Positions 26,092 through 64,000 of a stretch of DNA of 64,000 nucleotides are shown one piece after another (position 1 is the first letter of the stretch; each line of letters begins with the position of its first letter). The position numbers and the translations under genes were made by a program. The DNA comes from Poseidonia sp. (lineage in GTDB: Archaea > Thermoplasmatota > Poseidoniia > Poseidoniales > Poseidoniaceae). Below the pieces are notes generated by a model. It was not told the DNA's origin. It saw only the letters and a program-made list of their open reading frames with translations, and ran no database searches. The stretch is taken from assembly GCA_040261535.1 (NCBI GenBank), contig JBDQNU010000001.1:75109-139108 (forward strand). The letters run 5' to 3'.

Positions 26092-26141
26092 GATATAGCG
26101 ACCTTTTGTGGGAAAATCTGTCCACGGACCGAGGTGAAGCG

Positions 26142-27395: not shown

Positions 27396-27459
27396 GCAGC
27401 GCCCTTCGCTAACCGATGCACTCATTCGGCGCACATCGCCACCAAGTGCTCAAAACCTC

Positions 27460-35802: not shown

Positions 35803-36312
35803 TTAAGCGTCCCGCTTTGCCTTCTGCGCCAACATGTTGTCACGAATCCGTTTGGCCTTTTCCCATTCCTCTTGCTCCTCGTCGTTCGAGGGTGAGAATT
35901 GCGGTACGGGAATCGGGCGCATCATGGAATCGATGGCGACGAAAAAGAAGTAGCCTTCGCAGATGATCTTCTTTTCCCACGTCGCCTTGCTCATGGTGTA
36001 GGCCGTGACTTTGGTGCAGGCCGTGTGGCTGCTGGTGTAGACCACCTGTCCCGTGACTTCAAGCAGGTCACCTTGCCGAGCGGGGGCGATGAACGTCAGG
36101 GTGTCGATGGAGATGGTGACGAATTCGCGATGAGCAAACTTCGCACAGGCAATACCGCCAGCCTTGTCCATCAGCGAGAGCAAGCGTCCACCGAACAGGG
36201 TGTCGTAGGCGTTGGTGTCTTGGGGAAACACCTCCTCGATGAGGGTCACGGGTTCGGTGGAATAGGGCTCCATGACTACGGCAAAGGGTCCACCCTCATA
36301 ATTCATCGTCAA
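35803..36312 (-). CDS. Acyl-CoA thioesterase (hotdog fold, YciA/BFIT-like)
   Basis: 169 aa. Motif VFPQDTNAYDTLFGGRLLSLMDKAGGIACAKFA...VTISIDTLTFIAPARQGDLL. Confidence 0.8.
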   Translation of the reverse strand: MTMNYEGGPFAVVMEPYSTEPVTLIEEVFPQDTNAYDTLFGGRLLSLMDKAGGIACAKFAHREFVTISIDTLTFIAPARQGDLLEVTGQVVYTSSHTACTKVTAYTMSKATWEKKIICEGYFFFVAIDSMMRPIPVPQFSPSNDEEQEEWEKAKRIRDNMLAQKAKRDA

Positions 36313-36405
36313 GCCAAGCCGTACGCTGTCGTCATTTCAGTCGCCGAGTCCGAGAAGCGACGGGATTTTATGCGTTCAAAGTGTGGCGGGACCGTAGGTG
36401 ACACC

Positions 36406-45697: not shown

Positions 45698-45782
45698 GCG
45701 GTTCACGCCACCGCCCGCCCTTGTCCGCCGCCGCTGAACTCGGCCGATGTGCCCCGATTTTAGGAGGAACACTCAAAGGCTT

Positions 45783-45820
45783 GGTGTAGCGCACTACACC
45801 TGTTCCCCAAGGGTGTTTTT
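45783..45820 (+). promoter_or_regulatory. Two mutually exclusive hairpins in the fabI leader
   Basis: Hairpin 1 is GGTGTAG-cgca-CTACACC (45783-45800). Its ACACC (45796-45800) can alternatively pair with GGTGT (45812-45816), which is followed by TTTTT immediately before the fabI ATG (45822). Confidence 0.3.
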
Positions 45821-45821
45821 C

Positions 45822-46613
45822 ATGTTGGGACTTGAAGGAAAAACAGCGTTCGTGTTTGGAGTTGCCAGTGAAGACTCCATCGCTTGGGCGATTTGCAAGC
45901 AACTTGCGGCTGCGGGCGTTACGCTCTATTTGGGCTATCAAAAGCGGTTCATGAGCCGGATTTTCCAACTCAAAGACCAGCTCCCCGCCATCGGGGGGTT
46001 CTATCCCTTGGACGTCTCCTCAGACGCCACCACCAAGGAATTCTTCACCGCTTTTGCAGCAGATCACCCCGGAAAAAAGGCAGACATCCTCATCCACGCC
46101 ATCGGTTTCGCCCCACGTTCCTGCTTTGACCGCCCCATCCTGTTCGTTGAAGACGAGGACATCAACACCGCCATGACCATCTCGGCCAACTCCTTGCAGC
46201 GCTGCCTTAAACACGCCTTGCCCTACTTGGCCGACGGCTCCTCGACCATCACCCTGACGTATGCGGCCTCCAATCGGTTCGTTCCGAGTTACGGCATCAT
46301 GTCGATGGCCAAAGCGGCCTTGGAGTGCTGGACGCGGGAGTTGGCCTGTCATCTCGGTCCCGAGGGTCACCGCATCAACGCCATCTCCTCCGGGCCCATC
46401 CGAACCATCGCTGCGAGCGGTATACCCGGTTTTGACCGAATTCTCGACCACGTGGAAGCCAACGCTCCGCTACGGCGCAACGTGAGCCAAGACGATGTCG
46501 CCGGAGCAACGCTGTGGCTCGCCAGTCCGCTCGCAGGTGGAGTGACGGGCCAGTGCATCTACGTCGATGCGGGCTATTCGATCACGATGGTGCCGGAGAG
46601 CATCATGAACTGA
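45822..46613 (+). CDS. fabI: Enoyl-[acyl-carrier-protein] reductase, FabI (SDR) type
   Basis: GKTAFVFGVASEDSIAWAI, HAIGFAP, YGIMSMAKAALE (Y-x6-K) and INAISSGPIRTIAASGI are collinear with E. coli FabI as I recall it. Confidence 0.92.
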   Translation: MLGLEGKTAFVFGVASEDSIAWAICKQLAAAGVTLYLGYQKRFMSRIFQLKDQLPAIGGFYPLDVSSDATTKEFFTAFAADHPGKKADILIHAIGFAPRSCFDRPILFVEDEDINTAMTISANSLQRCLKHALPYLADGSSTITLTYAASNRFVPSYGIMSMAKAALECWTRELACHLGPEGHRINAISSGPIRTIAASGIPGFDRILDHVEANAPLRRNVSQDDVAGATLWLASPLAGGVTGQCIYVDAGYSITMVPESIMN

Positions 46614-46622
46614 GGTGAGAGC

Positions 46623-49600
46623 ATGGGGTTGACCACGGAAGACGGCAAACCTTGCGAGGGGATTGAACAAGGCCCGTTTGAACCCGTTGCCATCGTGGGT
46701 CTCGGGGCGCTCATGCCCGACGCTTCGGACATCGATGCCTTTTGGGACAACATCTTGAATGCGAAAATCAGCATTCGTGAATTGCCCGAAGGTCGATGGC
46801 CGGGGCCGACTGAGCATTTTTGGAAAGAAGGCGGACCGGGCGAGCACACTGAAGGGTACACCTATGCGAAAATTGGGGCGCTTGTGGAAGGTGCGGAGTT
46901 TGATTGGCGACGCTGGCGCCAACCGCCGGGGACGCTGCCCCAAATCGACCCCTGTCAACAGTGGGCCGTGACCGTCTCGGCCGACGCCATCGAGCACGCA
47001 GGATACGACGGGGAAGAGAGAGACATCGACCGAACCCGAACGGGGGTGGTTTTTGCCAACGCTCTGGGCGGTGAAAACCGAAACATGTCAAACATCCGTG
47101 TATGGTCCAACCACACCACGACCCTCGCCAAGGAGCACGGTCTGCCTGCAGACAAGGCCGATGCGTTCCAGGATGCCGTTTTGGAAGGCACGCCGAGGGT
47201 TGACGAAGACACCATGCCCGGAGAGCTGGCGAACGTGGTTTCGGGTCGCGTGGCGAATTTGCTCGATTTGCAAGGTCCCAACCACGCCATGGACGCAGCG
47301 TGTGCTTCCTCGATGGCGGCCGTCCTCGATGCCTGCCGATTGTTGCAGACGCGACAGGTCGACGTCATGCTGGCCGGTGCTGCTGACCGGACGATGGATC
47401 CGGCCACCTTTGCGAAATTTTCAGCCATCGGGGCCCTGTCACCCACGCATTCCTCCCCGTTCGATGCTCGGGCCAACGGCTTCGTCATGGGCGAAGGTGC
47501 GGGGGTTCTCGTCCTCAAGCGCTTGAGCGACGCGATTCGTTCCGGCGATGAGATCTACAGCGTGATTCGCGGCGTCGGCGGCTCTTCGGATGGCCGAGGC
47601 AAAGGCATCACGGCGCCGAGTCAACGGGGTCAAGTGCAAGCCATCGCCAGGGCGTACAGCCAAGCCGGATATGCACCGTCAAGCGTTGAATTGGTGGAAG
47701 CGCACGGGACCTCGACCAAAGTTGGAGATGCTACCGAACTTTCGACCCTCTCTCGGTTGTGGACGGGAGTCGAGGGCACCGGCAAAGTCGCCGTGGGTTC
47801 CATCAAGTCCCAGATCGGCCACCTCAAGGCCGCAGCCGGCATTGCTGGCATCATGAAATCGGTGATGGCGCTCCACCATCGAACCATTCCCCCCAGCGCC
47901 AATTTCCAGACGCCCAACCCTACCGTGGATTGGGGCGCTATCCCGTTCTTCGTTCCCACCCAGCCCTTGGACTGGCCACGTCCCGCCGACCATCCTCGCC
48001 GGGCAGGCGTTTCCGCGTTCGGCTTTGGAGGCACCAACTTCCACATCGCTTTGGAAGGATACGAGCCCGATTTCCACGCTCCTCTGGCCGCCCAGTGGGA
48101 GGGTCGATGGCAGGCGTACAGCGGACAGGGCGATGCAGCTGCACCATCCGTGTTCGATGCCTCGCTTTCGCCAACCCTCACCCATGAAGCCCTCAAAGCG
48201 ATTGAGGGCGGCGTGTTGCTGCGCTCGGCTGCCTCGGTTGAGGCTTTGAGCGCCGATCTGGCTTCGCTCAGTTTCGAAGGCCCGTTGTTTGACGACGACC
48301 CTCGCGGCTTGCGGCTCTCGCAGGCGCTTCAGGAAGCCAGCGAGGCTTACAACGTGGGCCACCCCGTACGCTTGGCTTTGGTGGCGACCTCGTGGGCCGA
48401 ATTCACAAAACGTCAGTCCTTGGCCGTCCAAGCGATGGGCGACAAGGAAAAGTGGGGCTTTTTGCAAGCCCAAGGTGTCTTGCTCACGGACGAGGCAGCG
48501 CTACCCCCCGAGGCGAAAGCCGTTCACATGTATCCCGGTCAAGGCAGCCAATACGTCGGGATGACCGCTGACCTCGTCAAGCGATTCACGGCGCCGGACG
48601 ATGTTTGGCGTCAAGCCGACGAGACGATGGTCGAGGTGCTTGACGGCGAAACCCTCTCCAGTTTTGTGCTGCGCTCGGACCTCTCCAAAGAAGAGCGTCA
48701 AGAAGCCGAGCACAAACTCAAACAAACCGAATACACCCAACCGGCCATGCTCACGGCCGATTTGGCCATTGAGCGCACCCTGAACGCCTTCGGTCACCAA
48801 CCCGATATGGTCGCAGGGCACTCCCTTGGAGAATACGCAGCGCTGATGTCATCGGGGATTTTGGATATGGACGGTGCGTTGCGAGCCGCCGCTGCGCGGG
48901 GCACCGAGATGGGCTCGGTCGTCATCGACGACAAGGGCCTCATGGCGAGCGTGACCGCACCGTACGCCGAAGTCGAAGCGGTTTTGGAGGCGACCGACGG
49001 CTACGTCATCGCCGCCAACAAGAATTCGCCAAAGATGACGGTCATCGCCGGTGAAACCGCCCCCGTTCGGGCGGCCATGGCGTCGTTTGAAGCGAAGGGT
49101 TTCTCGTGCGTTGAACTCGCTACTTCACACGCCTTCCACTCAAGAATCGTGGCTCCTGCCAACGAACCGCTGCGCCGATTTTTGGAAGGCCTGGAGATTC
49201 GCTGGCCCAGCGTCCCCATCACCGCCAACGTTGACGGGACGTTTTATCCGACGAAGGGAGAGGAAGCCAAGGCTGCCATTTTGGAAAAACTTGCACCACA
49301 GATGGCGTCCTCGGTGGAATGGACCAAGCAGATCGAGACCATGTACGGTGCCGGAGGGCGCCTTTTCGTTGAAGTCGGGCCGAAACGTGCGCTGACGATG
49401 TTTGCCATGCAGATCTTGGAAGGCAAACCGCACGTTCCCGTCATGACCAATCATCCCAAACAGGGCGGAATCGCTTCGTTTTTCACGGCCATCGGGGCCC
49501 TTGCGTTGGCCGGCCGCCCACCCGAATGGCCTGCTCTCGACTCCCCTTCCCTCCAAGACGCCTTCAAGGCCGGTCCAATCGAAGCCCAAGGGGGCGCCGG

Positions 49601-52600
49601 TTTGGTCGCTTCTTCGACCACAGCAGAACTCGAAGCACTCCGTGTGCGTGCCCGTCCGCTGCCCGGAAGCGGCTCGCCTGCGCCGTCAGTGCCTGCGAAT
49701 TCAGCCGTGATGGCACCCCCCTCCAACGACGAGGCCGCTCTTGGTCGAGCGATACGAGGCTACGTCGGTGACCGCATCGCCGCCTTTAGCGGGTATCCAG
49801 CATCGTTCTGTCACGGTCATGTGGCTCTTGTTGACGGGTTGGGTTTGACGCCTGCGCAAGTGCAACAGGTTGCCGCAACGCTCGCTTCGGAAGCGACGAC
49901 TGACCCCGAAGTCGACGGCTATGCCGCGGTGACGGCTGGCGATTTCGAACGTTGGGTTCGCCGCCCTCCTGCAACGTGGCGCCCGATGGCTTCCGTCACC
50001 GCTCCTTCGTCTCCAATGAACGTCCCCGTTCACACGGTTGGCGCGCTTCAAACCGCTTCACGCCGGGACCAAGACCCCTACGTCGTGACGGGCGTCTCGT
50101 TGGGCCTGCCGGGAATGGACCGGGTGTTTTCAGAGGATGCGTTTGAGAAGCTTGTTCGCGGCGAGACCTGCATTAGCGAAGTCTCGGATGAATACAAACA
50201 ACGCCTGCTCGACAAGAACATCGTTCGGCTGATCAAAGGACGTGACGGCTCGGTGAACATGGACCAAGCCACCGTGTTTGGCGATATCCCGCAACTTGCC
50301 GGTCTCAAAGGGGCCTTTGACCTCGCCGACGAGTTTGGCATCGACCCCAAAGCGATTGTCGCTTGGGACATCAGCACCCAACTGTCCGTGGCCGCAGGCC
50401 TCCTTGCTCTGCGTGATGCTGGTATTCCGCTCACGCCGGTGGAGCAGGTCGGAAAGGGCGGGCTGAGGCTGATTCGGAACTGGCAGGTGCCTCAAATCCA
50501 GCGAGAGCGAACGGGGATCGTCTTCTCCTCCTGTTTCCCGGGCCTCCAAATGGCCTCAAAACATGCGAAATCCAACGGGGATGACGGCGAGGGACGCTTT
50601 GACCGGCGCTACCTCTTCCAAACGCTGAACATGGGCCATTCCCAATTCGCTCAGTACACCGGTATTCGAGGCCCCAACACCACGATCAACCTCGCTTGTG
50701 CTTCGGCCACCGCCGCCTTTGGCGTCGCCGAGGATTGGCTTGATGCGGGCCGTGTCGACCGCGTGGTCATCATCAGCGGTGACGATGTGACGGGAGACGA
50801 TCTCTGGGAATGGATTGCCGGTGGCTTTGCCGCGTCGGGCGCCGCCGCGACCAACAACGTCGTTGAAGAAACCGCACTGCCCTTTGACCGTAGACGCAAC
50901 GGGCTGATTTTGGGGATGGGCGCCGCTGCGTTCGTCGTGGAACGGCATTCGGAAGCCCAGCAAAGAGGCGTCCAGCCGATCGCCGAATTCCTCGGTTCAA
51001 CCACGGCAAATTCGGCCTACCACGGCACCCGGCTTGACGTTGAACACGTCGGGCAGGTCGTGAACGAGTTCATTACGAGCATGGAGCGGCGCTGGGGCTT
51101 TGACCGGCACCAAATCGCCCCCAACACCGTGTTCTACTCCCACGAAACCTACACGCCAGCGAGAGGGGGCTCGGCCCAATCGGAAGTGCGGGCTCTGCGG
51201 GAAACCTTTGGCGACTCAACGAACAAACTGGTCATTGCCAACACGAAAGGATTCACCGGCCATCCGATGGCGGTGGGCATTGAAGACGCGAGCATGTTCT
51301 ACGGTCTCTTGACCGGTCGGCTGCCCCCCATCGCCAACCACAAGGAGAAGGACCCCGAATTGGGAGATTTGAACCTCTCCACCGGTGGCGATTATCCAAA
51401 CGTGACCTATGGGCTTCGCTTTGCAGCCGGCTTTGGGTCGCAAATAGCGCTCTCGCTGATGCGAAAATGGCCGGTGGAAGGCGACCGCATCGACGGTGGG
51501 AAGTTGCTCGCTTGGGCCCGAGGACTCGCCGGAACGGACGATGTTGTCATGCGGGTCTTGCAAAACAAACTCGTGGCCTACGTCAACGGAGACGACAATT
51601 TGCACGGCGGCGTTCAAGGCGATGCTTGGCTCCCTACCGAGGCGTGGGAAGGAAAACCCTCTGCGCAACCGGTCGTCGCCTCAACACCCGTGGCGACCGA
51701 ACCCGCGGCGCCCTCGGTGGCTGAACCACCGGCAACGCCACCCGCACCAACTCCGGCCCCTCCTGCGCCCGTTGTTGGCGATGCAGACATGATTTCAACG
51801 GTCGTGGACGTGGTGGTTCACCACACCGGTTACCCGGCAGATTTCGTTGAGCTGGACCAGGACCTTGAGGGCGAATTGGGCATCGACACGGTGAAACAAG
51901 CCGAGATCATGGCGGACATCCGGGAACGATTCTCCCTCCCTGTCGACGAAGACTTCGTTCTTGCCGATTATCCAACCCTCAACCACATGATCGGCTACAT
52001 CCAGCGCATGACCGGCGGCGAAGCCGCCCCTGTTGTGGCGCCCGTTGCCGCCGCCACGTCTCCCGTAACCCTTCCTGAGGCCACCCCGCAGCCAGCAAAC
52101 GAAAGCGCTCCATCTGCGCCCCCGGTTGAGACGGTTGACGACGCTACGATGGTTGAAACCGTTGTTTCGGTGGTCGTTCATCACACCGGTTACCCGGCCG
52201 ACTTTATCGAACTCGACCAAGACCTCGAAGGGGAATTGGGCATTGATACGGTGAAGCAAGCCGAGATCATGGCGGACATTCGGGACCGATTTTCGCTCCC
52301 GGTCGACGAAGACTTTGTCTTGGCGGACCACCCTACGCTAAACCACATGATCGGGTACATCCAACGGATGAAGGGAGGCGCCTCCAAGGCCGCTCCAAGC
52401 GTCGTTTCCCCGCCCTCCCCGTCAAATGATCAACCGATGGCTGAACCCAAATCCGCTCCGCCCGCTTCATCCCCTGCTCCGGTCGCGACGGGCGGCCACG
52501 ACGAGATTGAATCCGTGTTGGTCGAAGTGGTGGTCAACCACACGGGCTATCCTGCGGATTTCATCGAGATGGACCAGGACCTCGAGGGTGAACTTGGCAT

Positions 52601-55454
52601 TGACACGGTGAAACAAGCTGAGATCATGGGGGAGATTCGGGAACGCTTCTCCTTGCCGGTCGACGAGGACTTCGTGTTGGCCGACCATCCAACGCTCAAC
52701 CATTTCACGGCCTACATCGTGAGGATGCAAGGCGGTGATGCAGCGGCAACCCAAGCGGAATCCAACGCTGAAGCCTCACCAGCCTCAGCCCAAGCCCCAG
52801 CATCGGCGCCTGCCGAGTCGGTGGCCACGGGCACCCGTCGGTGGCAGGTTGAGGTTGAAGCCTGTCCGGGCGTGCCATCCCCGCTTTCCCTTTCGGGAAC
52901 GGTTGTGGTTTCCGATGACGGTTGGGGCATCGCCGAGGCCTTCTGTCAACGCATGGAGGCAAGAGGTTTGAAGGCCGTGCGCGTTGGTTTTGAAAGCAAA
53001 ATCAGGGACCCATCTCGGCTTGAAGAAAACGGAAGGGTGGTCCTCAGGGCCGACCCGGAACAGCCCGAGCATCTCCAATGGATCGCCAGCGAACTCAGCG
53101 AAACCGCCTTGGCGGCCTTGGTTCACATGGCGCCAATAAAACTCGCCTCTGAACAATGGGGCGAGGACACCTACCCTTCCTCGCAGGTTGCCCTTGCCGC
53201 TCACGGATGGTTTGGACTGCTCAAGGAGTTGGGCGGGCATCTTTCAACCGAAAAGCCGGGGCTTGTCGCCTCGGTCACGGCCCTTGACGGACGCCACGGA
53301 AACATCGGCGACCGGTTCAACGCCGTTCAATGCGCTGCGAGCGGCATCACGAAATCCTATGCGTTTGAGCGCCCTGATTTGCGATGCCGTGCCTTGGATT
53401 TGCATCCTGACGTGGTATTGGACGAAACGGCCGCTGCTGAAGCCATTGAGCACGACTTGTTCGGTCTCGACGGCGAGGTTGAGGTCGGTCTGGACCGTGA
53501 CGGTCGCCGATGGGCACTCGTCGCCTTTGCGGAAGACGTCGTGGACGAGGTGAAACCGCTGACAGCGGCCGATACGTGGCTCGTCTCGGGCGGAGGCTCG
53601 GGCGTGACGGCTGCGTCCATCATCGGGGTGGCGAAGGCTTCGCCGAAAGCCGGGGCGCATTTCGTCTTGCTCGGTCGTTCGGTGCTCATCGAATCAACCG
53701 AATCTTGGATTGATTGGACGGAAGCCCAATTGACCGAAGAGAAGAACGCTTTGCGACAGCGCCTCGTCGATGCGAGCGATTCAGGCAAAGTAACGATGGT
53801 GGAATGGAACAAAGCATGGCGGGCCTTCACGCGAAGTTGCGATGTTTACCGGACGCTCCACGTCATTCAGCAAACCGGAAACACCGCTGAATACCGGTCC
53901 GTGGACGTCATGGACGCCGACGGTTTGCGTGACCTTGGCTCTTCGTTGGGCCGCCCCATCACCGGGGTGGTTCACGGAGCGGGCTTGGAAGATTCCAAGT
54001 TGGTCGCTGACAAAGGCTACGACGTCTTTGATCGTGTGGTCCGCGTCAAGGTTGACGGCTGGCGTGCTTTGCTGGGAGCCGTGAACGCCTCGGGATTGGA
54101 CGTCCCTGAATTTGCGTGTTGTTTCACGAGCGTCGCTGGACGGTTCGGCAACGGTGGGCAAACCGATTATGCGGCGGCCAACTCGATTCTTGACGCTGAA
54201 ATGGCCCGTTTGACCGCGACCTCTTCAGCTCGGGGGGTCGCCATCGGTTGGACCGGCTGGCGGGACGTCGGCATGGCGACTCGTGGGTCCATCGAAGCGG
54301 TTTTCGCCGCTGCGGGCATTGAGACGTTGGCGGTGGACGACGGCGTCGCCATCTTCGTCGCCGAGGCGTTGCAGGGCGGCAAGCGACGCGTTCTGGGCTG
54401 CGGCTCGCTCGGGCTGATGGACCGATTCTCGTCTTTCCGAGAAGCCCCGGTGAAGTTGCCTGCACCGATGTCGGAGTTGATGGCGGACCCGTCCCGTTTC
54501 CCGTTCATTGACAAGATGGTTGAACTGGAAGAACACGAGCGTCTTGTCTCGCAATGCACGCTGTCCACTGAAGACCATCCGTTCCTCATCGACCACGCCA
54601 TCGAAGGCGTTCCTTACCACCCCGGCGTGATGGCGTTGGAGATGTTTGCACAAAACGCCCTGTTGTTGCGCCCCACCACTTGCCTTGCAGGGTTTGAGGA
54701 CGTGGCGTTCGGCCTCCCCGTGAAACTTCTCAAGGGACCGATAACGGTGCGTGTCGAGGCTGAGTATCTTCGTTCCAAAGACGACATGACCTGGGTGCGT
54801 TGCCGCTTGGTTTCGGATTTGACGAATTCAAAAGGCGAGCGTTTCGGTGAGCGAGAACACCACGTGGCCACGGTTCGTCTGGTCAACAAGCAGGAAGACC
54901 TTCGGCCGTTTTTGCAGCATGAAGTCGAAGCGTTGCCCACGATCGGCACGCCGCCGGGCGGTGTGTTGCTCCACGGCCCCGAGTTCATCTATTCGCGATA
55001 TTTCCACGGGCCCCGCTTCCAATCTCACGGTGGCGTGCTCGCTGGGTTTGGTGACGAGAATGCCATCGGCATCGATGGCGTGGCCCTGATGCGCCATCAA
55101 CTTCCGGCCACCGATCAGTTTGCTAACGAGCAAGCCGGCGAGACGGTGCTGCTCGAAGCCCTGCCCATGCTCATCGAAGCCGGCTTCCAAAATGCCGGTT
55201 TGGTGGCCATGGAATCGCTTGGATACAGCAGCCTTCCCGTCGGCATCGCATGGTCCACCATGCTTCGCGTTCCTGAAGCGGACGAACACCTTCGTCTCCG
55301 CAGTTTGCAAACGGCTCATCACGACGACGGCGTCACCGAGCACGATGTGTTGATCGTCGGCGAGGACGACGCGCCCGTGCTTTCCCTCAAGGGATTGAAA
55401 CTGAAGGCCATGGCCACGGTTGAAGAGGGCCAACGGTTCTCGCTCGAGCGCTGA
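46623..55454 (+). CDS. 2943-aa type-I FAS/PKS-like megasynthase: KS - AT - degenerate carrier - KS - 3x carrier - KR - DH
   Basis: It is a single uninterrupted ORF, with a 9-nt gap after fabI and a 1-nt overlap (TGATG) with the PPTase gene. Domain motifs are listed in the sub-features below. Confidence 0.95.
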   Translation: MGLTTEDGKPCEGIEQGPFEPVAIVGLGALMPDASDIDAFWDNILNAKISIRELPEGRWPGPTEHFWKEGGPGEHTEGYTYAKIGALVEGAEFDWRRWRQPPGTLPQIDPCQQWAVTVSADAIEHAGYDGEERDIDRTRTGVVFANALGGENRNMSNIRVWSNHTTTLAKEHGLPADKADAFQDAVLEGTPRVDEDTMPGELANVVSGRVANLLDLQGPNHAMDAACASSMAAVLDACRLLQTRQVDVMLAGAADRTMDPATFAKFSAIGALSPTHSSPFDARANGFVMGEGAGVLVLKRLSDAIRSGDEIYSVIRGVGGSSDGRGKGITAPSQRGQVQAIARAYSQAGYAPSSVELVEAHGTSTKVGDATELSTLSRLWTGVEGTGKVAVGSIKSQIGHLKAAAGIAGIMKSVMALHHRTIPPSANFQTPNPTVDWGAIPFFVPTQPLDWPRPADHPRRAGVSAFGFGGTNFHIALEGYEPDFHAPLAAQWEGRWQAYSGQGDAAAPSVFDASLSPTLTHEALKAIEGGVLLRSAASVEALSADLASLSFEGPLFDDDPRGLRLSQALQEASEAYNVGHPVRLALVATSWAEFTKRQSLAVQAMGDKEKWGFLQAQGVLLTDEAALPPEAKAVHMYPGQGSQYVGMTADLVKRFTAPDDVWRQADETMVEVLDGETLSSFVLRSDLSKEERQEAEHKLKQTEYTQPAMLTADLAIERTLNAFGHQPDMVAGHSLGEYAALMSSGILDMDGALRAAAARGTEMGSVVIDDKGLMASVTAPYAEVEAVLEATDGYVIAANKNSPKMTVIAGETAPVRAAMASFEAKGFSCVELATSHAFHSRIVAPANEPLRRFLEGLEIRWPSVPITANVDGTFYPTKGEEAKAAILEKLAPQMASSVEWTKQIETMYGAGGRLFVEVGPKRALTMFAMQILEGKPHVPVMTNHPKQGGIASFFTAIGALALAGRPPEWPALDSPSLQDAFKAGPIEAQGGAGLVASSTTAELEALRVRARPLPGSGSPAPSVPANSAVMAPPSNDEAALGRAIRGYVGDRIAAFSGYPASFCHGHVALVDGLGLTPAQVQQVAATLASEATTDPEVDGYAAVTAGDFERWVRRPPATWRPMASVTAPSSPMNVPVHTVGALQTASRRDQDPYVVTGVSLGLPGMDRVFSEDAFEKLVRGETCISEVSDEYKQRLLDKNIVRLIKGRDGSVNMDQATVFGDIPQLAGLKGAFDLADEFGIDPKAIVAWDISTQLSVAAGLLALRDAGIPLTPVEQVGKGGLRLIRNWQVPQIQRERTGIVFSSCFPGLQMASKHAKSNGDDGEGRFDRRYLFQTLNMGHSQFAQYTGIRGPNTTINLACASATAAFGVAEDWLDAGRVDRVVIISGDDVTGDDLWEWIAGGFAASGAAATNNVVEETALPFDRRRNGLILGMGAAAFVVERHSEAQQRGVQPIAEFLGSTTANSAYHGTRLDVEHVGQVVNEFITSMERRWGFDRHQIAPNTVFYSHETYTPARGGSAQSEVRALRETFGDSTNKLVIANTKGFTGHPMAVGIEDASMFYGLLTGRLPPIANHKEKDPELGDLNLSTGGDYPNVTYGLRFAAGFGSQIALSLMRKWPVEGDRIDGGKLLAWARGLAGTDDVVMRVLQNKLVAYVNGDDNLHGGVQGDAWLPTEAWEGKPSAQPVVASTPVATEPAAPSVAEPPATPPAPTPAPPAPVVGDADMISTVVDVVVHHTGYPADFVELDQDLEGELGIDTVKQAEIMADIRERFSLPVDEDFVLADYPTLNHMIGYIQRMTGGEAAPVVAPVAAATSPVTLPEATPQPANESAPSAPPVETVDDATMVETVVSVVVHHTGYPADFIELDQDLEGELGIDTVKQAEIMADIRDRFSLPVDEDFVLADHPTLNHMIGYIQRMKGGASKAAPSVVSPPSPSNDQPMAEPKSAPPASSPAPVATGGHDEIESVLVEVVVNHTGYPADFIEMDQDLEGELGIDTVKQAEIMGEIRERFSLPVDEDFVLADHPTLNHFTAYIVRMQGGDAAATQAESNAEASPASAQAPASAPAESVATGTRRWQVEVEACPGVPSPLSLSGTVVVSDDGWGIAEAFCQRMEARGLKAVRVGFESKIRDPSRLEENGRVVLRADPEQPEHLQWIASELSETALAALVHMAPIKLASEQWGEDTYPSSQVALAAHGWFGLLKELGGHLSTEKPGLVASVTALDGRHGNIGDRFNAVQCAASGITKSYAFERPDLRCRALDLHPDVVLDETAAAEAIEHDLFGLDGEVEVGLDRDGRRWALVAFAEDVVDEVKPLTAADTWLVSGGGSGVTAASIIGVAKASPKAGAHFVLLGRSVLIESTESWIDWTEAQLTEEKNALRQRLVDASDSGKVTMVEWNKAWRAFTRSCDVYRTLHVIQQTGNTAEYRSVDVMDADGLRDLGSSLGRPITGVVHGAGLEDSKLVADKGYDVFDRVVRVKVDGWRALLGAVNASGLDVPEFACCFTSVAGRFGNGGQTDYAAANSILDAEMARLTATSSARGVAIGWTGWRDVGMATRGSIEAVFAAAGIETLAVDDGVAIFVAEALQGGKRRVLGCGSLGLMDRFSSFREAPVKLPAPMSELMADPSRFPFIDKMVELEEHERLVSQCTLSTEDHPFLIDHAIEGVPYHPGVMALEMFAQNALLLRPTTCLAGFEDVAFGLPVKLLKGPITVRVEAEYLRSKDDMTWVRCRLVSDLTNSKGERFGEREHHVATVRLVNKQEDLRPFLQHEVEALPTIGTPPGGVLLHGPEFIYSRYFHGPRFQSHGGVLAGFGDENAIGIDGVALMRHQLPATDQFANEQAGETVLLEALPMLIEAGFQNAGLVAMESLGYSSLPVGIAWSTMLRVPEADEHLRLRSLQTAHHDDGVTEHDVLIVGEDDAPVLSLKGLKLKAMATVEEGQRFSLER
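46680..48056 (+). other. KS1 domain (PKS/PfaA-type ketosynthase)
   Basis: VAIVGLGALMPDA; active Cys227 in NHAMDAACASS (TGT at 47301-47303); EAHGTSTKVGD; SQIGHLKAAAG; GFGGTNFHIALE. Confidence 0.9.
48522..49427 (+). other. Acyltransferase domain (malonyl-type)
   Basis: YPGQGSQYVGM; GHSLGEYAA (Ser734); TSHAFHS (HAFH motif, associated with malonyl specificity in the PKS literature). Confidence 0.9.
49740..49958 (+). other. Degenerate carrier-protein-like domain (CP0)
   Basis: IRGYVGDRIAAFSGYPASFCHGHVALVDGLGLTPAQVQQVAATL is collinear with the downstream carrier domains (TGYPADF...DLEGELGIDTVKQAEIMADI). The D-T dipeptide reads L-T (Thr1076). Confidence 0.55.
50073..51467 (+). other. KS2 domain (FabF/FabB-like, catalytic triad intact)
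   Basis: PYVVTGVSLGLPG; Cys1359 in TTINLACASATAA (TGT at 50697-50699); YSHETYTPARGG (compare HGTSTPAGD); NTKGFTGHPMAVG (compare STKSMTGHLLGAAG). Confidence 0.85.
51786..52730 (+). repeat. Three tandem carrier-protein (ACP-like) domains separated by A/P-rich linkers; DNA period ~357-360 nt
   Basis: The units lie at ~51786-52013, 52146-52373 and 52503-52730. Each encodes ...VVHHTGYPADF(V/I)E(L/M)DQDLEGELGIDTVKQAEIM(A/G)(D/E)IR(E/D)RFSLPVDEDFVLAD(Y/H)PTLNH.... Thr codons ACG sit at 51888-90, 52248-50 and 52605-07, at the position of the usual DSL serine. Confidence 0.9.
53565..54302 (+). other. Ketoreductase domain
   Basis: TWLVSGGGSGVTAASIIGVA (Rossmann), VVHGAG and FTSVAGRFGNGGQTDYAAANSILD (S...YxxxN). 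A structural sub-domain precedes it from ~52845. Confidence 0.85.
54495..55451 (+). other. PKS-type dehydratase (double hotdog) domain
   Basis: HPFLIDHAIEGVPYHPG contains HxxxGxxxxP (His2658). The ~320-aa C-terminal region fits a PS-DH fold in length. Confidence 0.8.
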
Positions 55455-56221
55455 TGGTGGTGTCCATGACGGGCATGACGGAATTGAGTTCACCCGTGCC
55501 CGGCGTCCGCCTCTTTGCAAGTCCCGTGCACGCTCATGCTCTCGCCGACGTCCCGCTGGCAGACGCCGGCGAGGTGGCGACGTTTGCAACCGAGAAACGG
55601 CGCAACGAACACTTGACCGGACGGTGGTTGCTCGGCCAAGCCCTGATGGCGCACGGAGAGCGGGATTTGTCCGCCCTGGAGGTCCTGCGAAGCGAACAGC
55701 GTGCTCCGTCACTTGCCTTCATCCAAGGTGCGTGGCGTCGTACACCGTTGCCGTCCATCTCCATCGCTCACAGCGGCGGAAGGGCGGTGGTGGCGTTGGG
55801 TCCTGCTGGCCGATGCATCGGCATTGACCTCGAACCGTTGGAGCGTGCGTTGGCTCAAAACGCGTTTGATCTCATCGCCAAAGGCGAGGAACTTGAACAA
55901 CTTCGGCTGCATCCTGAACAGGCCATGCGGTTGTGGACGGGGAAGGAAGCGGTCCAGAAAGCGATGGGTTTGGGGATGCACCTCAACCCGAGGGATATTC
56001 AAATTCCAATTGATAACAATAGGAGTCAGATTCCAATTGAAAAATCAAAAATCCAATTGGAATATTGGACTGACGAGGAGTATCATTTTTCCCTCGCCTC
56101 TCGACCAAAACCAGTCCCCGAACGCACGCCCGAGGACGTGCTCTTGGACCAAACCAAGGCGGCGATGAACGCCAATCCCGATTGGGGCGTGGGTTGCAAC
56201 ACCCAACGAAACGCTCGGTAA
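55454..56221 (+). CDS. 4'-phosphopantetheinyl transferase (Sfp/EntD type)
   Basis: 255 aa. Motifs SIAHSGGRAVVAL, IGIDLEPLER (metal-binding D/E) and LWTGKEAVQKAMG (WxxKEAxxK). The start overlaps the megasynthase stop (TGATG). Confidence 0.85.
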   Translation: MVVSMTGMTELSSPVPGVRLFASPVHAHALADVPLADAGEVATFATEKRRNEHLTGRWLLGQALMAHGERDLSALEVLRSEQRAPSLAFIQGAWRRTPLPSISIAHSGGRAVVALGPAGRCIGIDLEPLERALAQNAFDLIAKGEELEQLRLHPEQAMRLWTGKEAVQKAMGLGMHLNPRDIQIPIDNNRSQIPIEKSKIQLEYWTDEEYHFSLASRPKPVPERTPEDVLLDQTKAAMNANPDWGVGCNTQRNAR

Positions 56222-56660: not shown

Positions 56661-58313
56661 TCAGGTGCACGTTTTGAAGGCTGTATCGGTGTTGATGGCG
56701 TCGTGAATCAACCGGAGAGGCAGGACGGGCGTCCCGTCTTCCCATTGACCCATCCCGGTGAGCATCGTTTCATCGGTCATGTATTGATAGGCAAAGTCTG
56801 CCGTGAAGGTGTCGTTTCGGCCTTGGGCGACGATGTAATCCGCTTGAGCGTCAATGCGACGGTAAAAGCCCCAATCGGACAACCGGTCGTGGGCGGGGTC
56901 GGTTTGCATGTAGTGGCTCGCCACGAGTCGAGGGAACCCGTATTTGTCGGAACGGACCACAATGAGTTGGTTTCGCTCTTCGGGAAGGGTTCCAAACTGT
57001 GCCTGATGGAAGGCTCCGGGGCACATCCCGACGCTCATGTCGTCTTCGGCGACGGCGATTTGGACCAGCGTATTGGCCGGAATCCGGGCGAAATCGTGCT
57101 GCAAGGCGTCCTGCATCGGCCGACTTGCGGGGGCCTCAAGGGCGACGACCAATGCATGGTCCCCCCATCCTCGCTCAAAGGCGTCGTCAAGACTCAGGAA
57201 GGTGTAGGCCGCCCCCAAACTGTGACCACCCACCCAGAGCGATGAAGGGTCGATGATCACGCCCCCAATGGTTTTGTCAATGCGGGGGTCGCGATCTTCA
57301 CCCATCGCCAAGGCGTCCAGATGGTCCATCGCCGCCCGTATCGAAAGGTTCCGGTAGGTGTGTTGCAAGAAGTTCGAGGTGCCCGCATCGTAGACCTCAT
57401 CAAAGGTTTCATGCCCTTCCGGCCTCAGATCCGAAGGGTATTGCAGGAATGCCACAGCCATGCCCTTGGCCGCTAGGTGGGAAATCCAAGTCTGGTACGC
57501 ATTGACGTCGGGATAACCAAAGCCGTGGAGCAAGACGGCCAGCGGGACCGTTGTCAGCGGGGTGTCTTCGGGAAGGTCAGGAAGGGTGAGATGGACGCTG
57601 AACGTGACGTCGTCTTCGAGATCGCCTTGAACCGCAAGGACCTCGGCGGGCATGGTGTAGGGCGAGGAGAATTGAACCGTGTCGTACGGCCCGGGGGTTG
57701 AACCGTATCCAATTCGGGGTGCATCGGGAGGTGCCGGGGCCATGCCCACAAGCGCAGGGATGCCCGGCATGACCAACCAAGCCGCAAAAAAAACCCCCAA
57801 GAGGTGGGCGGTTTTGGGCCAAGAGACACCTTCACCACCGGGTGAACGCAGGGTCGGCGGGCCCCCGAGCACCAATAACACCATCGCAAGGGTCCATCCG
57901 TAAAGGGTGGGCAAGAGCAAGAACGCCCCTCGCAAGTACGCAACGTCCATGATGAAATGAATCGTGAGGAAGCCGAGAACGAAGCCCAGCACAGCAAACA
58001 GAACCAACCGGATTCGTTCGTGATGTTTCGAGGTGAGGTAAGCACGGCGTCCGAAAAAGGACGAGGCGGAGAGGACGATGGCGATGGAGAACGGCAACGC
58101 TGCTGACGCACGCAACGCCATGGTCCAATCCAGCGAACGAACCGCATGAGGCCAAACGGCGTCAACCACGTTGTCGCCGGTCATCAGGTTGAAGACGATT
58201 TCACTGAAGGCAAGCAGGAAGCCTGCCGTAAGCGAGAGCGACGCTGCATGACGGGCCCGGAACGGGAGCTTGGGTTGAGGCGCCAACCCTTCACCGAGTT
58301 CGTCTTCACCCAC
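56661..58313 (-). CDS. Polytopic-membrane-anchored alpha/beta hydrolase (lipase/esterase-like)
   Basis: 550 aa. The N-terminal ~200 aa has ~6 TM helices. The C-terminal domain has LAVLLHGFGYP (oxyanion region) and the nucleophile elbow WVGGHSLGAAY (GxSxG). Confidence 0.75.
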   Translation of the reverse strand: MGEDELGEGLAPQPKLPFRARHAASLSLTAGFLLAFSEIVFNLMTGDNVVDAVWPHAVRSLDWTMALRASAALPFSIAIVLSASSFFGRRAYLTSKHHERIRLVLFAVLGFVLGFLTIHFIMDVAYLRGAFLLLPTLYGWTLAMVLLVLGGPPTLRSPGGEGVSWPKTAHLLGVFFAAWLVMPGIPALVGMAPAPPDAPRIGYGSTPGPYDTVQFSSPYTMPAEVLAVQGDLEDDVTFSVHLTLPDLPEDTPLTTVPLAVLLHGFGYPDVNAYQTWISHLAAKGMAVAFLQYPSDLRPEGHETFDEVYDAGTSNFLQHTYRNLSIRAAMDHLDALAMGEDRDPRIDKTIGGVIIDPSSLWVGGHSLGAAYTFLSLDDAFERGWGDHALVVALEAPASRPMQDALQHDFARIPANTLVQIAVAEDDMSVGMCPGAFHQAQFGTLPEERNQLIVVRSDKYGFPRLVASHYMQTDPAHDRLSDWGFYRRIDAQADYIVAQGRNDTFTADFAYQYMTDETMLTGMGQWEDGTPVLPLRLIHDAINTDTAFKTCT

Positions 58314-60711: not shown

Positions 60712-63700
60712 TCAACGCTTCCGGAACTCGTCGAAAATGGAGCTCTCCCGCAGCCGACTTGCTGGTGGCGGACGTTGCTGCTGGACCATGCTTCGCTGCG
60801 GCAGGTCCACCATGCCGTGCGTGTCTCGGTAATCGGCCATGCGGCGCGCACGGCGCTCGCTTTCTTTCGCACTTTTCGCACGGCCCCGAAGCATCAGGGC
60901 GCCCATCAGGACAAAGAGAATCAACACCGCCATGCTGGCCTGAATCACCGGATTCTCAATGAGGGTGCTCAACCCCGAACCTTCCGCTTCATCGGCGGTG
61001 ATCACGGGTGCGTTGGAATCGGTGGCCCGAATCACGACCGTCACGGTGTCCATGGGGTACTCCGCACCGGGCTCTCGGGCGGAGAGCTGCAGTTGGTGGT
61101 TCCCGGTGGCTTTTGCCGTCCCCGAGAAGGTGACCGTTTGCGAGGTTCCGCTCTCCGAGGTGAAGGTGATGAAGTGGTTGGAATTCTCGCCCACGATGTT
61201 GTTGGTTGCCTCCCAGTTCACGTTGGCGGCAAACGCCGAAGCCATGGTCGTGCTCAAGGTGCAAGTAAAGGAGAACCAACCGCTTGCGGCCAAATCAACG
61301 TGGATGCTCACCGGCGAACAGGTCATCGCTGCTTCTGCAGCGTACCGGGTGCCGTCGTTCGGGTAGTGGTCGGGGCGATGGGCGCCGAGACTGGCGTTGT
61401 CGCCGTACCCGTCACCGTCTCCATCGGCGTGTTGGCTCGCCTGGTCGGGGAAGGCGTCCTGATCGTTGGCCCAGCCGTCGCCGTCGTTGTCCGGGCAGCC
61501 TGCGGTTCCGCCCATGGTCGAGGTTCCAGCCTCGCCGGGACAGGCGTCGCCATCGGTCCCTGAGGCTTCGTCACCGTAGCCGTCACCGTCGCTGTCGAAC
61601 CATTGGGTGGCGTCCGTGGGCCACAGGTCAAGTTCGTCGCCCGCTCCGTCGCCGTCGCCGTCAGGGCATCCAAACCCGCCCAAGGTGGAGGTTCCCACCG
61701 CATTTGGACAAGCATCGGCTTGGGTGCCGTTTGGATGATCGCCAAAGCCGTCGCCATCAGCATCGTTCCATTGGCTCGCATCATCGGCAAAGGCATCGTT
61801 CGTGTCCGAAGTTCCGTCGCCGTCGCCGTCCTCGCATCCAAACCGGTCCACGGTAGACGTGCCGGACGTGGTGGGACACGCATCGGCTTGCATCCCCGAA
61901 GCGTTGTCACCGAAGCCGTCGCCGTCCTGATCGGCGGTTTGGGTGGCGTCGTAAGGGAAGGCATCGGCCCCATCGCTGAGGTTCCATCCCGATTGATTAC
62001 CGACCGCCGGGCTCGGGTTGGAAACACCGTCGCCGTCGTAGTCCAAGCAGCCGAAGCGGTCCAGACTTGAGTTGCCGTTGGTGAACGGACAGGCGTCTTC
62101 AGCATCGTCGTAGCCGTCACCATCGGTGTCGACCCAGCGAGTAGGGTCGTCGGGGAAGGCGTCGCTCGCATTGGAGTAGCCGTCACCGTCGTCGTCAACA
62201 CAGCCGTAGCGGTCTTCGGTTGAGGTTCCGCTTTCGCCGGGACAAGCGTCCGGCTGCAAGCCGCTGGCGTTATCGCCGTAGCCGTCACCGTCCTGGTCAA
62301 GCCATTGCGTCGCCAAATTGGGGAGGGCATCGATGGCGTCGTCCCAACCGTCGCCGTCGGTATCGGGGCAACCAAGTCGGTTACCTTGGGTGGAGTTTCC
62401 GTAGGCCGTCGGGCATGCATCTGGGTTGACACCGCCGGGGTTGTCACCGTAGCCGTCACCGTCACCGTCCAACCATTGCGTGACCTCGTTTGGATGGCTG
62501 TCCTCGCTGTCGGCCCAACCGTCCTCATCGGCGTCAGGACAACCCAAGGTGCCGTTCTGCCACGACTCACCGTAGGTGTTGGGGCAGGCATCGGGCAGGG
62601 AACCGGTGGGCTCGTCCCCAAAACCGTCGCCGTCGGTGTCGTTCCACTGCGATGAATCGGTCATGAAGGCGTCGGCGCCGTCGCCCGTCGTCCAACCGCT
62701 GTCGGGGTCCGAGTAGCCGTCCCCGTCTTGGTCCGGACAGCCTTTCCGGTCGTGGACGGACGTTCCAAACACGGTTGGACAATCGTCGTCCAAGCCATCG
62801 TCGAACCCGTCACCGTCGTTGTCGCCCCAGCGGGTGGGGTCGAGAGGGTACGCATCGGCGCCGTCGTCCGTGGTCCACAACACGTCAGGATCGGAGTAGC
62901 CGTCGCCGTCGCTGTCGGTGCAGCCTCGTCGGTCGTTGGTCGAGTTCCCTGCGATGAGGGGGCAAGCGTCGCCGTTGGTTCCGGAGGGATTGTCGCCGTA
63001 ACCGTCGCCGTCCGAGTCCAACCATTGGGTGGAATCGTTCGGGGCGATGTCAGCGCCGTCGGTCGTCGTCCAGTTTGCATCCCCGTCCGATGACCCGTCG
63101 TTGTCGGTGTCGGTGCACCCGAACCGGTCCCGGGTCGACGTACCGCTGGTGCTCGGACACGCATCGCCTTCGAACCCGCTGGCTTCGTCGCCGTAGCCGT
63201 CGCTATCGCTGTCGGCCCATTGGGTGGCTTCGCTCGGGAAGGCATCGTCCACGTCGGCGTAGCCGTCCCCGTCGGTGTCGGTGCAGCCGAGTCGACCGGC
63301 TTCCGTCGAGGTTCCGAATTGACTCGGGCACGCATCGGGGTTGTTTCCGGTGGCGTTGTCGCCGTAGCCGTCACCGTCGCTGTCAGCCCATTGGGTGTTG
63401 TCGGAAGCGAAGGCGTCCGCACCGCTTGAGGTTGTCCACAACACGTCGGGGTCCGAATACCCGTCCCCGTCGGTGTCGGTGCACCCGTAGCGGTCGTGAA
63501 TCGAGGTGCCTGAGGTGCTCGGACATCCATCGCCTGAAGTGGCGGGAGGGGGATTGTCGCCGTAGCCGTCGCCATCGCTGTCGGCCCATTGGGTGCTGTC
63601 GGTGGGGAAGGCGTCTGCGCCGTTGGCCGTGGTCCAACCGCTGTCGGGGTCGGAGTACCCGTCCCCGTCCTGGTCTGCACACCCGTTCCGGTCTTCGTCC

Positions 63701-64000
63701 GAGGGTCCTGCTACGGTTGTGCACGCATCGGCCCCGTTGGAGGTTGTCCACCCGCTGTCGCCGTCGGAGAACCCGTCGCCGTCGGTGTCGGTGCAGCCGA
63801 AGCGGTCGCTTGTGGAATTCCCTGCCAGCGAAATGCACGCGTCGGGTTCGGTACCGGCAGCGTTGTCGCCGTAGCCATCAAAGTCGCTGTCTTCCCACTG
63901 GGTCGCATCGGACGGGAAGGCATCGGCGCCGTCGTTCACCGTCCAGTTGCCGTCGGGGTTGGAGTACCCGTCGTTGTCGGTATCGGGGCATCCCGTTCGA
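60712..64000 (-). CDS. Very large thrombospondin-type-3-repeat (Ca-binding DxDxDGxxD) surface protein, C-terminally TM-anchored; 5' end outside the window
   Basis: The repeat pattern continues in frame to the window edge, beyond the first Met at 63939. About 17 units of ...DACP..(S/A)G.S..DR.GC.D.DGDG(Y/W)(S/A)D..D.FP.D.TQW.DSDGDGYGDN.... The C-terminus has an Ig-like non-repeat region, a TM (VIQASMAVLILFVLMGALML) and a basic tail. Confidence 0.85.
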   Translation of the reverse strand, partial: RTGCPDTDNDGYSNPDGNWTVNDGADAFPSDATQWEDSDFDGYGDNAAGTEPDACISLAGNSTSDRFGCTDTDGDGFSDGDSGWTTSNGADACTTVAGPSDEDRNGCADQDGDGYSDPDSGWTTANGADAFPTDSTQWADSDGDGYGDNPPPATSGDGCPSTSGTSIHDRYGCTDTDGDGYSDPDVLWTTSSGADAFASDNTQWADSDGDGYGDNATGNNPDACPSQFGTSTEAGRLGCTDTDGDGYADVDDAFPSEATQWADSDSDGYGDEASGFEGDACPSTSGTSTRDRFGCTDTDNDGSSDGDANWTTTDGADIAPNDSTQWLDSDGDGYGDNPSGTNGDACPLIAGNSTNDRRGCTDSDGDGYSDPDVLWTTDDGADAYPLDPTRWGDNDGDGFDDGLDDDCPTVFGTSVHDRKGCPDQDGDGYSDPDSGWTTGDGADAFMTDSSQWNDTDGDGFGDEPTGSLPDACPNTYGESWQNGTLGCPDADEDGWADSEDSHPNEVTQWLDGDGDGYGDNPGGVNPDACPTAYGNSTQGNRLGCPDTDGDGWDDAIDALPNLATQWLDQDGDGYGDNASGLQPDACPGESGTSTEDRYGCVDDDGDGYSNASDAFPDDPTRWVDTDGDGYDDAEDACPFTNGNSSLDRFGCLDYDGDGVSNPSPAVGNQSGWNLSDGADAFPYDATQTADQDGDGFGDNASGMQADACPTTSGTSTVDRFGCEDGDGDGTSDTNDAFADDASQWNDADGDGFGDHPNGTQADACPNAVGTSTLGGFGCPDGDGDGAGDELDLWPTDATQWFDSDGDGYGDEASGTDGDACPGEAGTSTMGGTAGCPDNDGDGWANDQDAFPDQASQHADGDGDGYGDNASLGAHRPDHYPNDGTRYAAEAAMTCSPVSIHVDLAASGWFSFTCTLSTTMASAFAANVNWEATNNIVGENSNHFITFTSESGTSQTVTFSGTAKATGNHQLQLSAREPGAEYPMDTVTVVIRATDSNAPVITADEAEGSGLSTLIENPVIQASMAVLILFVLMGALMLRGRAKSAKESERRARRMADYRDTHGMVDLPQRSMVQQQRPPPASRLRESSIFDEFRKR
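61400..64000 (-). repeat. Tandem ~180-195-nt coding repeats (TSP type 3-like calcium-binding units)
   Basis: GACGGCGACGGCTACGG-type strings (seen as ccgtagccgtcgccgtc on the plus strand) recur throughout. This explains the many shadow ORFs in other frames. Confidence 0.85.

Follow-up and report, generated by a model that had tools for sequence, protein, structure and literature searches.

Can a carrier domain work with threonine at the position where the serine that holds the 4'-phosphopantetheine arm is expected? The question is raised by a gene cluster of the archaeon Poseidonia sp. (GenBank assembly GCA_040261535.1, contig JBDQNU010000001.1, positions 75,109 to 139,108; this whole stretch of 64,000 nucleotides is hereafter the window), in which a multidomain synthase with three tandem acyl carrier protein (ACP) domains is followed by an Sfp-type 4'-phosphopantetheinyl transferase (PPTase). 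The Ser of the DSL motif of carrier proteins is treated as the obligatory acceptor of the arm: it is the residue recorded in PROSITE and UniProt as 'O-(pantetheine 4'-phosphoryl)serine' and inspected in the active-site checks of antiSMASH, and Ser-to-Thr mutants serve as dead controls. An initial annotation of the window had noticed that all three ACPs carry Thr at this site. Our comparative analysis suggests that this Thr is probably phosphopantetheinylated by the cluster's own PPTase.

The three ACG codons given for these residues (Table 1) proved exact when we translated the gene. The tandem ACPs of the synthase read LGIDTVKQAEIM, and positions 51786-52730 translate to GELGIDTVKQAEIM in each of the three carrier domains, with Thr in 3/3 domains where the (D/H)S(L/I/V) carrier motif has its conserved Ser. 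Pfam finds PP-binding (PF00550) in three stretches, with 85.2 bits against a gathering threshold of 20.8. Three independent lines, two of alignment and one of structure prediction, indicate that Thr is at the canonical attachment position, as the initial annotation had proposed. First, phmmer alignments against the PDB pair it with the DS serine of both PigH ACPs, of the fatty acid synthase ACP of S. coelicolor, of the mupirocin didomain ACP, and of spinach ACP. Second, a scan of 1.84 billion proteins gave PfaA-type tandem ACPs as the closest relatives with Ser at the site, and a gapless blastp alignment with them (34% identity) sets DLEGELGIDTVKQAEI opposite DLETDLGIDSIKRVEI, with Thr on the Ser. 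P0135, which served as comparator, is a genuine PfaA (TIGR02813, 2202 bits for a cut-off of 1010), and modification of PfaA tandem ACPs by a PPTase and coenzyme A (CoA) has been shown by electrospray ionization mass spectrometry (PMC3585217). Third, an AlphaFold2 model of the ACP made from the family alignment (pLDDT 91.3) has the predicted four-helix-bundle fold of ACPs, in which residues 3-15 form helix I, residues 36-49 helix II, and residues 66-77 the last helix; helix II opens with the Thr, and a Foldseek search of the model against the PDB returned only ACPs (TM 0.80-0.87). Canonical acyl and peptidyl carrier proteins, such as E. coli AcpP (Ser36) and spinach ACP-I (Ser38), have the same bundle with an acidic helix II, and their attachment residue likewise comes first in helix II after an Asp; they differ in having Ser as the nucleophile, whereas here it would be the secondary alcohol of Thr.

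The initial annotation had recognised that another conserved Ser could be the true site. This can be ruled out, since none of the positions of the carrier domain holds a second conserved Ser across the 307 unique domains that we aligned. The residues around the Thr are conserved: Asp precedes it in 307/307 unique domains, and Glu stands at +5 in 302/307. They correspond to D35 and E41 of E. coli ACP, which AcpS no longer modifies when these residues are mutated (bioRxiv 10.1101/2025.01.28.635281), and their conservation supports the idea that the Thr is modified.

One could suspect that the Thr is an artefact or a sign of decay, with the sequence misread or misassembled, the gene a pseudogene, or ACG decoded in a non-standard way. 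We found no point in favour of this, and the suspicion rests on Thr being unexpected. The synthase is a single open reading frame (ORF) that is intact over 8.8 kb. Pairwise, the three ACP copies differ at 50-69 of 231 nucleotides (22-30% DNA divergence), with 24-33 synonymous codon differences and 8-18 amino-acid differences. Divergence of this mostly synonymous kind excludes both a sequencing error, as had been argued from the start, and a recent homogenisation; recent gene conversion can thus be rejected as the source of the shared Thr in this window. The pattern indicates that the copies are old and that each has been under long purifying selection. Furthermore, all four ACN codons are in use at the site across independent assemblies and cultured strains, the latter including Nonomuraea rosea, Planobispora takensis, Amycolatopsis sp., and Ectobacillus funiculus. 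We consider the chance that the Thr is spurious to be negligible.

We searched for homologues with a fragment made of the second ketosynthase (KS2) and the ACPs. Those with 60-95% identity belong to Marine Group II archaea (Poseidoniaceae, Poseidoniales, and Thermoplasmatota metagenome-assembled genomes), the kind of archaeal relatives in which the initial annotation had proposed to compare Ser and Thr. To these we can add hundreds of bacterial proteins at 40-50% identity, which make the family mostly bacterial. At least 569 relatives were found in a scan with one genome per species, and 2571 representatives of a 50%-identity library match at E<=1e-10. Besides Marine Group II archaea, the family takes in at least nine bacterial phyla. 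It includes cultured Actinomycetota of the genus Amycolatopsis and the species Planobispora takensis and Nonomuraea rosea, as well as Ectobacillus funiculus, Acidobacteriota, Myxococcota, Chloroflexota, Elusimicrobiota, Gemmatimonadota, Thermodesulfobacteriota, and Leptospiraceae. The number of ACPs per member ranges from 1 to 7.

Nearly all these domains carry Thr. The LG[IV]DTVKQAE motifs of 120 homologues count 313 Thr and 2 Ser, the 79 genomic loci analysed together with the window count 254 Thr and 2 Ser, and 306 of the 307 unique domains have T (1 has S). Uniform Ser among orthologues had been named as the outcome that would point to an assembly or strain artefact; the orthologues are almost uniformly Thr, and the near-fixation of the residue, together with the purifying selection on the copies, bears out the earlier suggestion that Thr is under selection. 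The surrounding signature is nearly invariant over the unique domains: TGYP...DLE[AG][DE]LG[IV]DTVKQAE...R...L.D[YF]PTL. At the level of DNA, the Thr codons of the loci are ACG (134), ACC (98), ACT (11), and ACA (11), each of them a single substitution away from a Ser codon. In spite of this proximity, proteins with two or more carriers are either all-Thr (271) or all-Ser (47), and none is mixed. Ala, Val, Asn, or any other residue besides Ser and Thr was never seen at the attachment site in the family domains and loci examined. With the site limited to Ser and Thr, the conserved feature is the hydroxyl group, as expected of a nucleophile rather than of a structural residue. In summary, Thr is the hallmark of a large and mostly bacterial family and not a peculiarity of this archaeon.

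A few members have only Ser: L010:1431-9761 (Euryarchaeota archaeon UBA596), P0059, P0219, and P0220, with motifs LGVDSVKQAE, LGIDSIKQAEI, and LGIDSVKVAEI. Both Ser codons found in the genomic loci are TCA and come from a single archaeal genome, L010. In a neighbour-joining tree of KS2 this Ser lineage branches within the Thr-bearing archaeal clade, and its Ser is thus most simply explained by a reversion. P0220, a synthase resembling the Type R enzymes described below, has Ser carriers and is fused to a PPTase. These members could be natural comparators for PPTase specificity.

The PPTase encoded behind the synthase contains 4PPT_N and ACPS, the two halves of the Sfp-type (group II) enzymes, together with the motifs ISIAHS, GIDLE (GxDxE), and WTGKEAVQK ((W/F)xxKE(S/A)xxK). 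As a single sequence it matched solved structures too weakly (E=0.06), and we used a profile of 20 cluster PPTases, which matches Sfp (1QR0, 4MRT; E ~4e-16) and human AASDHPPT (~4e-15) with the catalytic motifs in register; on Sfp, GIDlE, ISHS, and WsaKEavlK align. An iterative search placed this PPTase downstream of the synthase in 65/79 loci, and many of the negative loci end at contig ends or at the limit of the flanks. In eight loci (L043, L054, L060, L061, L064, L072, L076, and L079) synthase and PPTase form one protein, with the PPTase at the C-terminal end. Within 10 kb of the synthase at the 79 loci, and across the 64-kb window, we found no Ser-type carrier, which rules out a discrete Ser-type ACP within the cluster over that range.

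The fact that the PPTase is syntenic with or fused to the synthase, the lack of another carrier nearby, and the exclusive alternation of Ser and Thr favour modification of the Thr, the first of the three readings offered by the initial annotation, and we infer that it is the dedicated PPTase that enables it. In the mechanism that we propose, the three domains would be functional carriers in a PfaA-like type I fatty-acid/polyketide synthase that works iteratively and is served in trans by a FabI-like enoyl-ACP reductase (ER). The translationally coupled PPTase would transfer 4'-phosphopantetheine from CoA to the hydroxyl of Thr1756, Thr1876, and Thr1995, in place of Ser, and the holo-domains would shuttle malonyl and growing acyl thioesters among the ketosynthase (KS), acyltransferase (AT), ketoreductase (KR), dehydratase (DH), and ER sites. 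The Thr state would be ancestral to the whole Type R family and kept by purifying selection. Thr might be preferred for insulation from housekeeping PPTases and hydrolases, or for the greater resistance of a secondary phosphoester to beta-elimination. Beyond this cluster, we lean towards the view that O-(4'-phosphopantetheinyl)-threonine is a natural and widespread modification, served by a co-evolving clade of Sfp-type PPTases.

The genomic context also bears on a different reading, in which the Thr domains are never modified and act as scaffolds, spacers, or docking sites. The synthase would then use an external Ser-type ACP or CoA substrates, and the PPTase would serve some other carrier. 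Such a carrier might lie elsewhere, since our search covered the window and the 10-kb flanks. The PPTase is also wholly canonical in look, and a canonical ACP loses its function upon mutation of Ser to Thr, as cited in PMC9310384. We nevertheless find this reading unlikely. Not one of the loci (0/79) has a Ser carrier, and eight lineages have fused the PPTase to the very protein that bears the Thr domains. A scaffold has no need for an invariant Asp-Thr, a Glu at +5, and the exclusion of non-hydroxyl residues over more than 560 domain copies. To our knowledge, most archaea lack ACPs, which also speaks against this reading. Finally, the number of ACPs varies from one member to the next as it does in polyunsaturated fatty acid (PUFA) synthases, in which more ACPs raise the throughput (Shulse & Allen, PMC3098273, and Hayashi et al., PMC5067506).

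In a third reading the Thr hydroxyl is used otherwise, either by forming oxoesters directly with acyl or malonyl groups or by receiving from the PPTase an acylated or altered CoA-derived group. It agrees with the tolerance of hydroxyl residues only at the site, and Sfp-type enzymes are known to accept acyl-CoAs. There are also hints of unusual CoA-level chemistry in the bacterial clusters, in which an acyl-CoA-dehydrogenase-like (ACAD-like) gene replaces the FabI-like gene and a single-chain acetyl-CoA carboxylase (ACC) lies between the synthase and the PPTase. However, the active sites of KS, KR, and DH in this superfamily are reached through the ~20 Å pantetheine arm, and the catalytic motifs are all canonical here. 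The conservation of the PPTase argues for a CoA-derived arm, and direct Thr oxoester carriers have no known precedent in KS-based condensation. We therefore regard such uses of the hydroxyl as quite improbable.

Several observations weigh against phosphopantetheinylation of the Thr, the reading that we prefer. The support for it is entirely comparative. We found no report of phosphopantetheinyl-threonine, of the DTVKQAE motif, or of this synthase in Poseidoniales in full-text searches that reached little of the subscription literature. Spinach ACP-I is reported to lose its function with the S38T substitution (cited in PMC9310384). The cluster PPTases lack a clade-specific change of the active site that would accommodate a beta-branched nucleophile, and no PPTase residue was found to covary convincingly with the Ser/Thr state in a comparison that had only two Ser-type enzymes. 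A single lead emerged: GLRxDxR has its Arg in 80% of the Thr-type PPTases, and both Ser-type ones have another residue there; the choice between KEA and KES does not track the Ser/Thr state.

Is the synthase itself new? By its architecture and neighbourhood, read from the sequence, the cluster matches the 'Type R secondary lipid synthase', already catalogued in 2011 (Shulse & Allen 2011, PLoS One 6:e20146). Type R was described as having one pfaA homologue of structure KS-MAT-CLF-ACP(3-6)-KR and a downstream PPTase with an hShxH motif, in Koribacter, Solibacter, Elusimicrobium, and Roseiflexus, with the ACC of Koribacter between the synthase and the PPTase; threonine is nowhere mentioned in that description (PMC3098273). 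The domain order corresponds to the KS-AT-KS2-ACP x3-KR-DH seen here. The PPTase lies directly downstream in both, and the P1b' hShxH motif is shared, as ISIAHS in the PPTase of the window. The ACC insertion of Koribacter recurs in a Terriglobales locus (L048), and the phyla are those of the present family (Acidobacteria, Elusimicrobia, Chloroflexi). The homologues with 40-50% identity also fall in the Type R phyla; the comparison with the reference Type R genomes was made at the level of phylum and gene order. There are differences as well. The domain called 'CLF' in Type R retains the full Cys-His-His triad in the present family. The archaeal version has an extra degenerate carrier-like domain after the AT and a FabI-like ER that replaces the bacterial ACAD and ACC, and Marine Group II members lay outside the survey of Shulse & Allen. 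The cluster type is thus known, while the Thr attachment site is apparently unreported and appears to be a new variant of the carrier-protein paradigm.

A second close system is PfaA (TIGR02813; PMC3585217). The two have in common tandem carriers with Ala/Pro-rich linkers, the signature TGY...DLExDLGIDxxK..E, the order KS-AT-ACPn-KR-DH, and a dedicated Sfp-type PPTase (PfaE in the case of PfaA). PfaA has Ser (LGIDSIKRVEI) where the synthase of the window has Thr (LGIDTVKQAEI), and the latter has an additional KS2 between the AT and the ACPs. TIGR02813 is the best NCBIfam match of the synthase, but with 862 bits for a cut-off of 1010.1 it fails the curated model, and we do not class it as a PfaA. 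Partners of the PfaB, PfaC, or PfaD type were absent from our survey of the ORFs common to the loci, in which the conserved neighbours are ER or ACAD, ACC, and PPTase, and none of the window ORFs scanned with Pfam resembled PfaC or PfaD. Enediyne PksE synthases have the organisation KS-AT-ACP-KR-DH-PPTase; they are iterative type I enzymes with a single Ser-type ACP and no KS2. The C-terminal fusion of the PPTase is a likeness shared by eight family members, and PksE did not come up as a close sequence relative in any of the searches made.

If the Thr is indeed modified, the rule of an 'invariant serine' in carrier proteins would be overturned and the substrate scope of PPTases widened. A family with a fixed Thr and its own PPTase implies either a new modification and PPTase specificity or carriers that do without an arm, and either would be new; a new specificity would also suit an orthogonal tagging pair. 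Annotation tools that demand a Ser may label the Thr domains as inactive. Moreover, the abundant Marine Group II archaea of the surface ocean would have a complete bacterial-type, ACP-dependent fatty-acyl synthase, which bears on the debate on fatty acids and membrane lipids in archaea.

Table 1. Genes and domains of the synthase cluster (positions in the window).
Feature	Position	Strand	Basis
FabI-like enoyl-ACP reductase (trans-acting ER)	45747..46613	+	adh_short_C2 E=1.6e-68 (Pfam)
Megasynthase, 2943 aa, KS1-AT-(pseudo-ACP)-KS2-ACP1-ACP2-ACP3-KR-DH	46623..55454	+	Pfam, translation
KS1, aa 20-428	46680..47906	+	Pfam ketoacyl-synt + Ketoacyl-synt_C
Acyltransferase, aa 634-946	48522..49460	+	Acyl_transf_1 E=1.4e-36 (Pfam); GHSLGE, HAFH in translation
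Degenerate carrier-like linker domain, GLGLT, Thr1076 at 49848-49850	49710..50069	+	homology to true ACPs
KS2, aa 1171-1660, 'CLF' of Shulse & Allen	50133..51602	+	second ketoacyl-synt stretch (Pfam)
ACP1, Thr1756 = ACG at 51888-51890	51783..52013	+	PP-binding, PDB alignment, AlphaFold2 model
ACP2, Thr1876 = ACG at 52248-52250	52143..52373	+	PP-binding, translation
ACP3, Thr1995 = ACG at 52605-52607	52500..52730	+	PP-binding, translation
Ketoreductase core, aa 2407-2548	53841..54266	+	Pfam KR E=7.6e-22
PKS-type dehydratase, aa 2627-2943	54501..55451	+	PKS_DH_N (Pfam); HxxxGxxxxP motif read as HAIEGVPYHP
Sfp-type 4'-phosphopantetheinyl transferase, 255 aa	55454..56221	+	Pfam ACPS + 4PPT_N

The ER, the synthase, and the PPTase form a tight operon (Table 1). 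The ER gene lies directly upstream of the synthase, whose ATG is preceded by GGTGA, and the stop codon of the synthase overlaps the start of the PPTase in the sequence TGATG. The best match of the ER among the NCBIfam FabI models has E=2.6e-65, under the equivalog cut-offs, and ER homologues were found in 15 other loci. Within the synthase, we take the HAFH motif of the AT to indicate malonyl specificity. The catalytic Cys-His-His-Lys of KS2 is kept in 46/46 family members. Because KS2 retains this complete set, the synthase may possess two ketosynthases that are both active, in place of a KS/CLF pair.

The upstream carrier-like domain, between the AT and KS2, was also listed as having Thr at the aligned position (GLGLTPAQV). 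The residue and its coordinates are correct, the codon being ACG; the significance given to it does not hold. The domain, with the pattern GYPAxFCxGxVxLxxGLG[LM][STN], is a homologue of the true ACPs, but it is found only in 15 Poseidoniales loci and is without counterpart in the bacterial homologues. The 15 archaeal orthologues have S, T, or N at the aligned position and no Asp before it. Thr1076 is therefore not meaningful, and we rejected this archaeal-only domain as a real carrier.

Some variants of the cluster are worth recording. The loci with a fused PPTase come from Thermoplasmata/Thermoplasmatota, Thermodesulfobacteriota, and other groups. In the Poseidoniales nearest to the window (L001, L003, L006, and L011), as in the window itself (56000-56221), the PPTase has a C-terminal extension of ~70 aa that terminates in a conserved ...DWGVGC(K/N)T(Q/T)R...; bacterial cluster PPTases are without this motif. 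The Terriglobales locus L048:3017-19638 has the order ACAD-like gene, synthase, eukaryote-like ACC (BC-BCCP-central-CT, 1864 aa), and PPTase, and that of Nonomuraea rosea (L068) is similar.

Other genes of the window touch on CoA and lipids. An ORF at 21025-22044 (+), ~33 kb upstream of the PPTase, fuses a cytidylyltransferase-like domain, of the family that includes PPAT, to DUF359. If DUF359 is, as we take it, the family of archaeal dephospho-CoA kinases, this ORF would cover the last two steps of CoA synthesis. A FAD/NAD-binding reductase overlapping a protein of the fatty-acid-hydroxylase superfamily (26106-28518, +) and a stand-alone biotin carboxylase (30890-32230, +) add two more lipid-related loci, 15-20 kb before the synthase. 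The gene at 23778-25019 (-) encodes an Orc1/Cdc6 replication initiator (Cdc6_C, Cdc6_lid, AAA); it confirms the window as chromosomal DNA of an archaeon, and a replication origin may be nearby. Four large ORFs had no Pfam match: 35899-42291 (+), 60712-63939 (-), 56661-58313 (-), and 18148-20667 (+), of 2130, 1075, 550, and 839 aa, respectively. The 2130-aa ORF, the one of the four that was also scanned with NCBIfam, had no match there either, and its homologues occur in only 5 related loci. Finally, the 726-aa product of 28586-30766 (+) has collagen triple-helix repeats followed by DUF7151, which is unusual for an archaeon.

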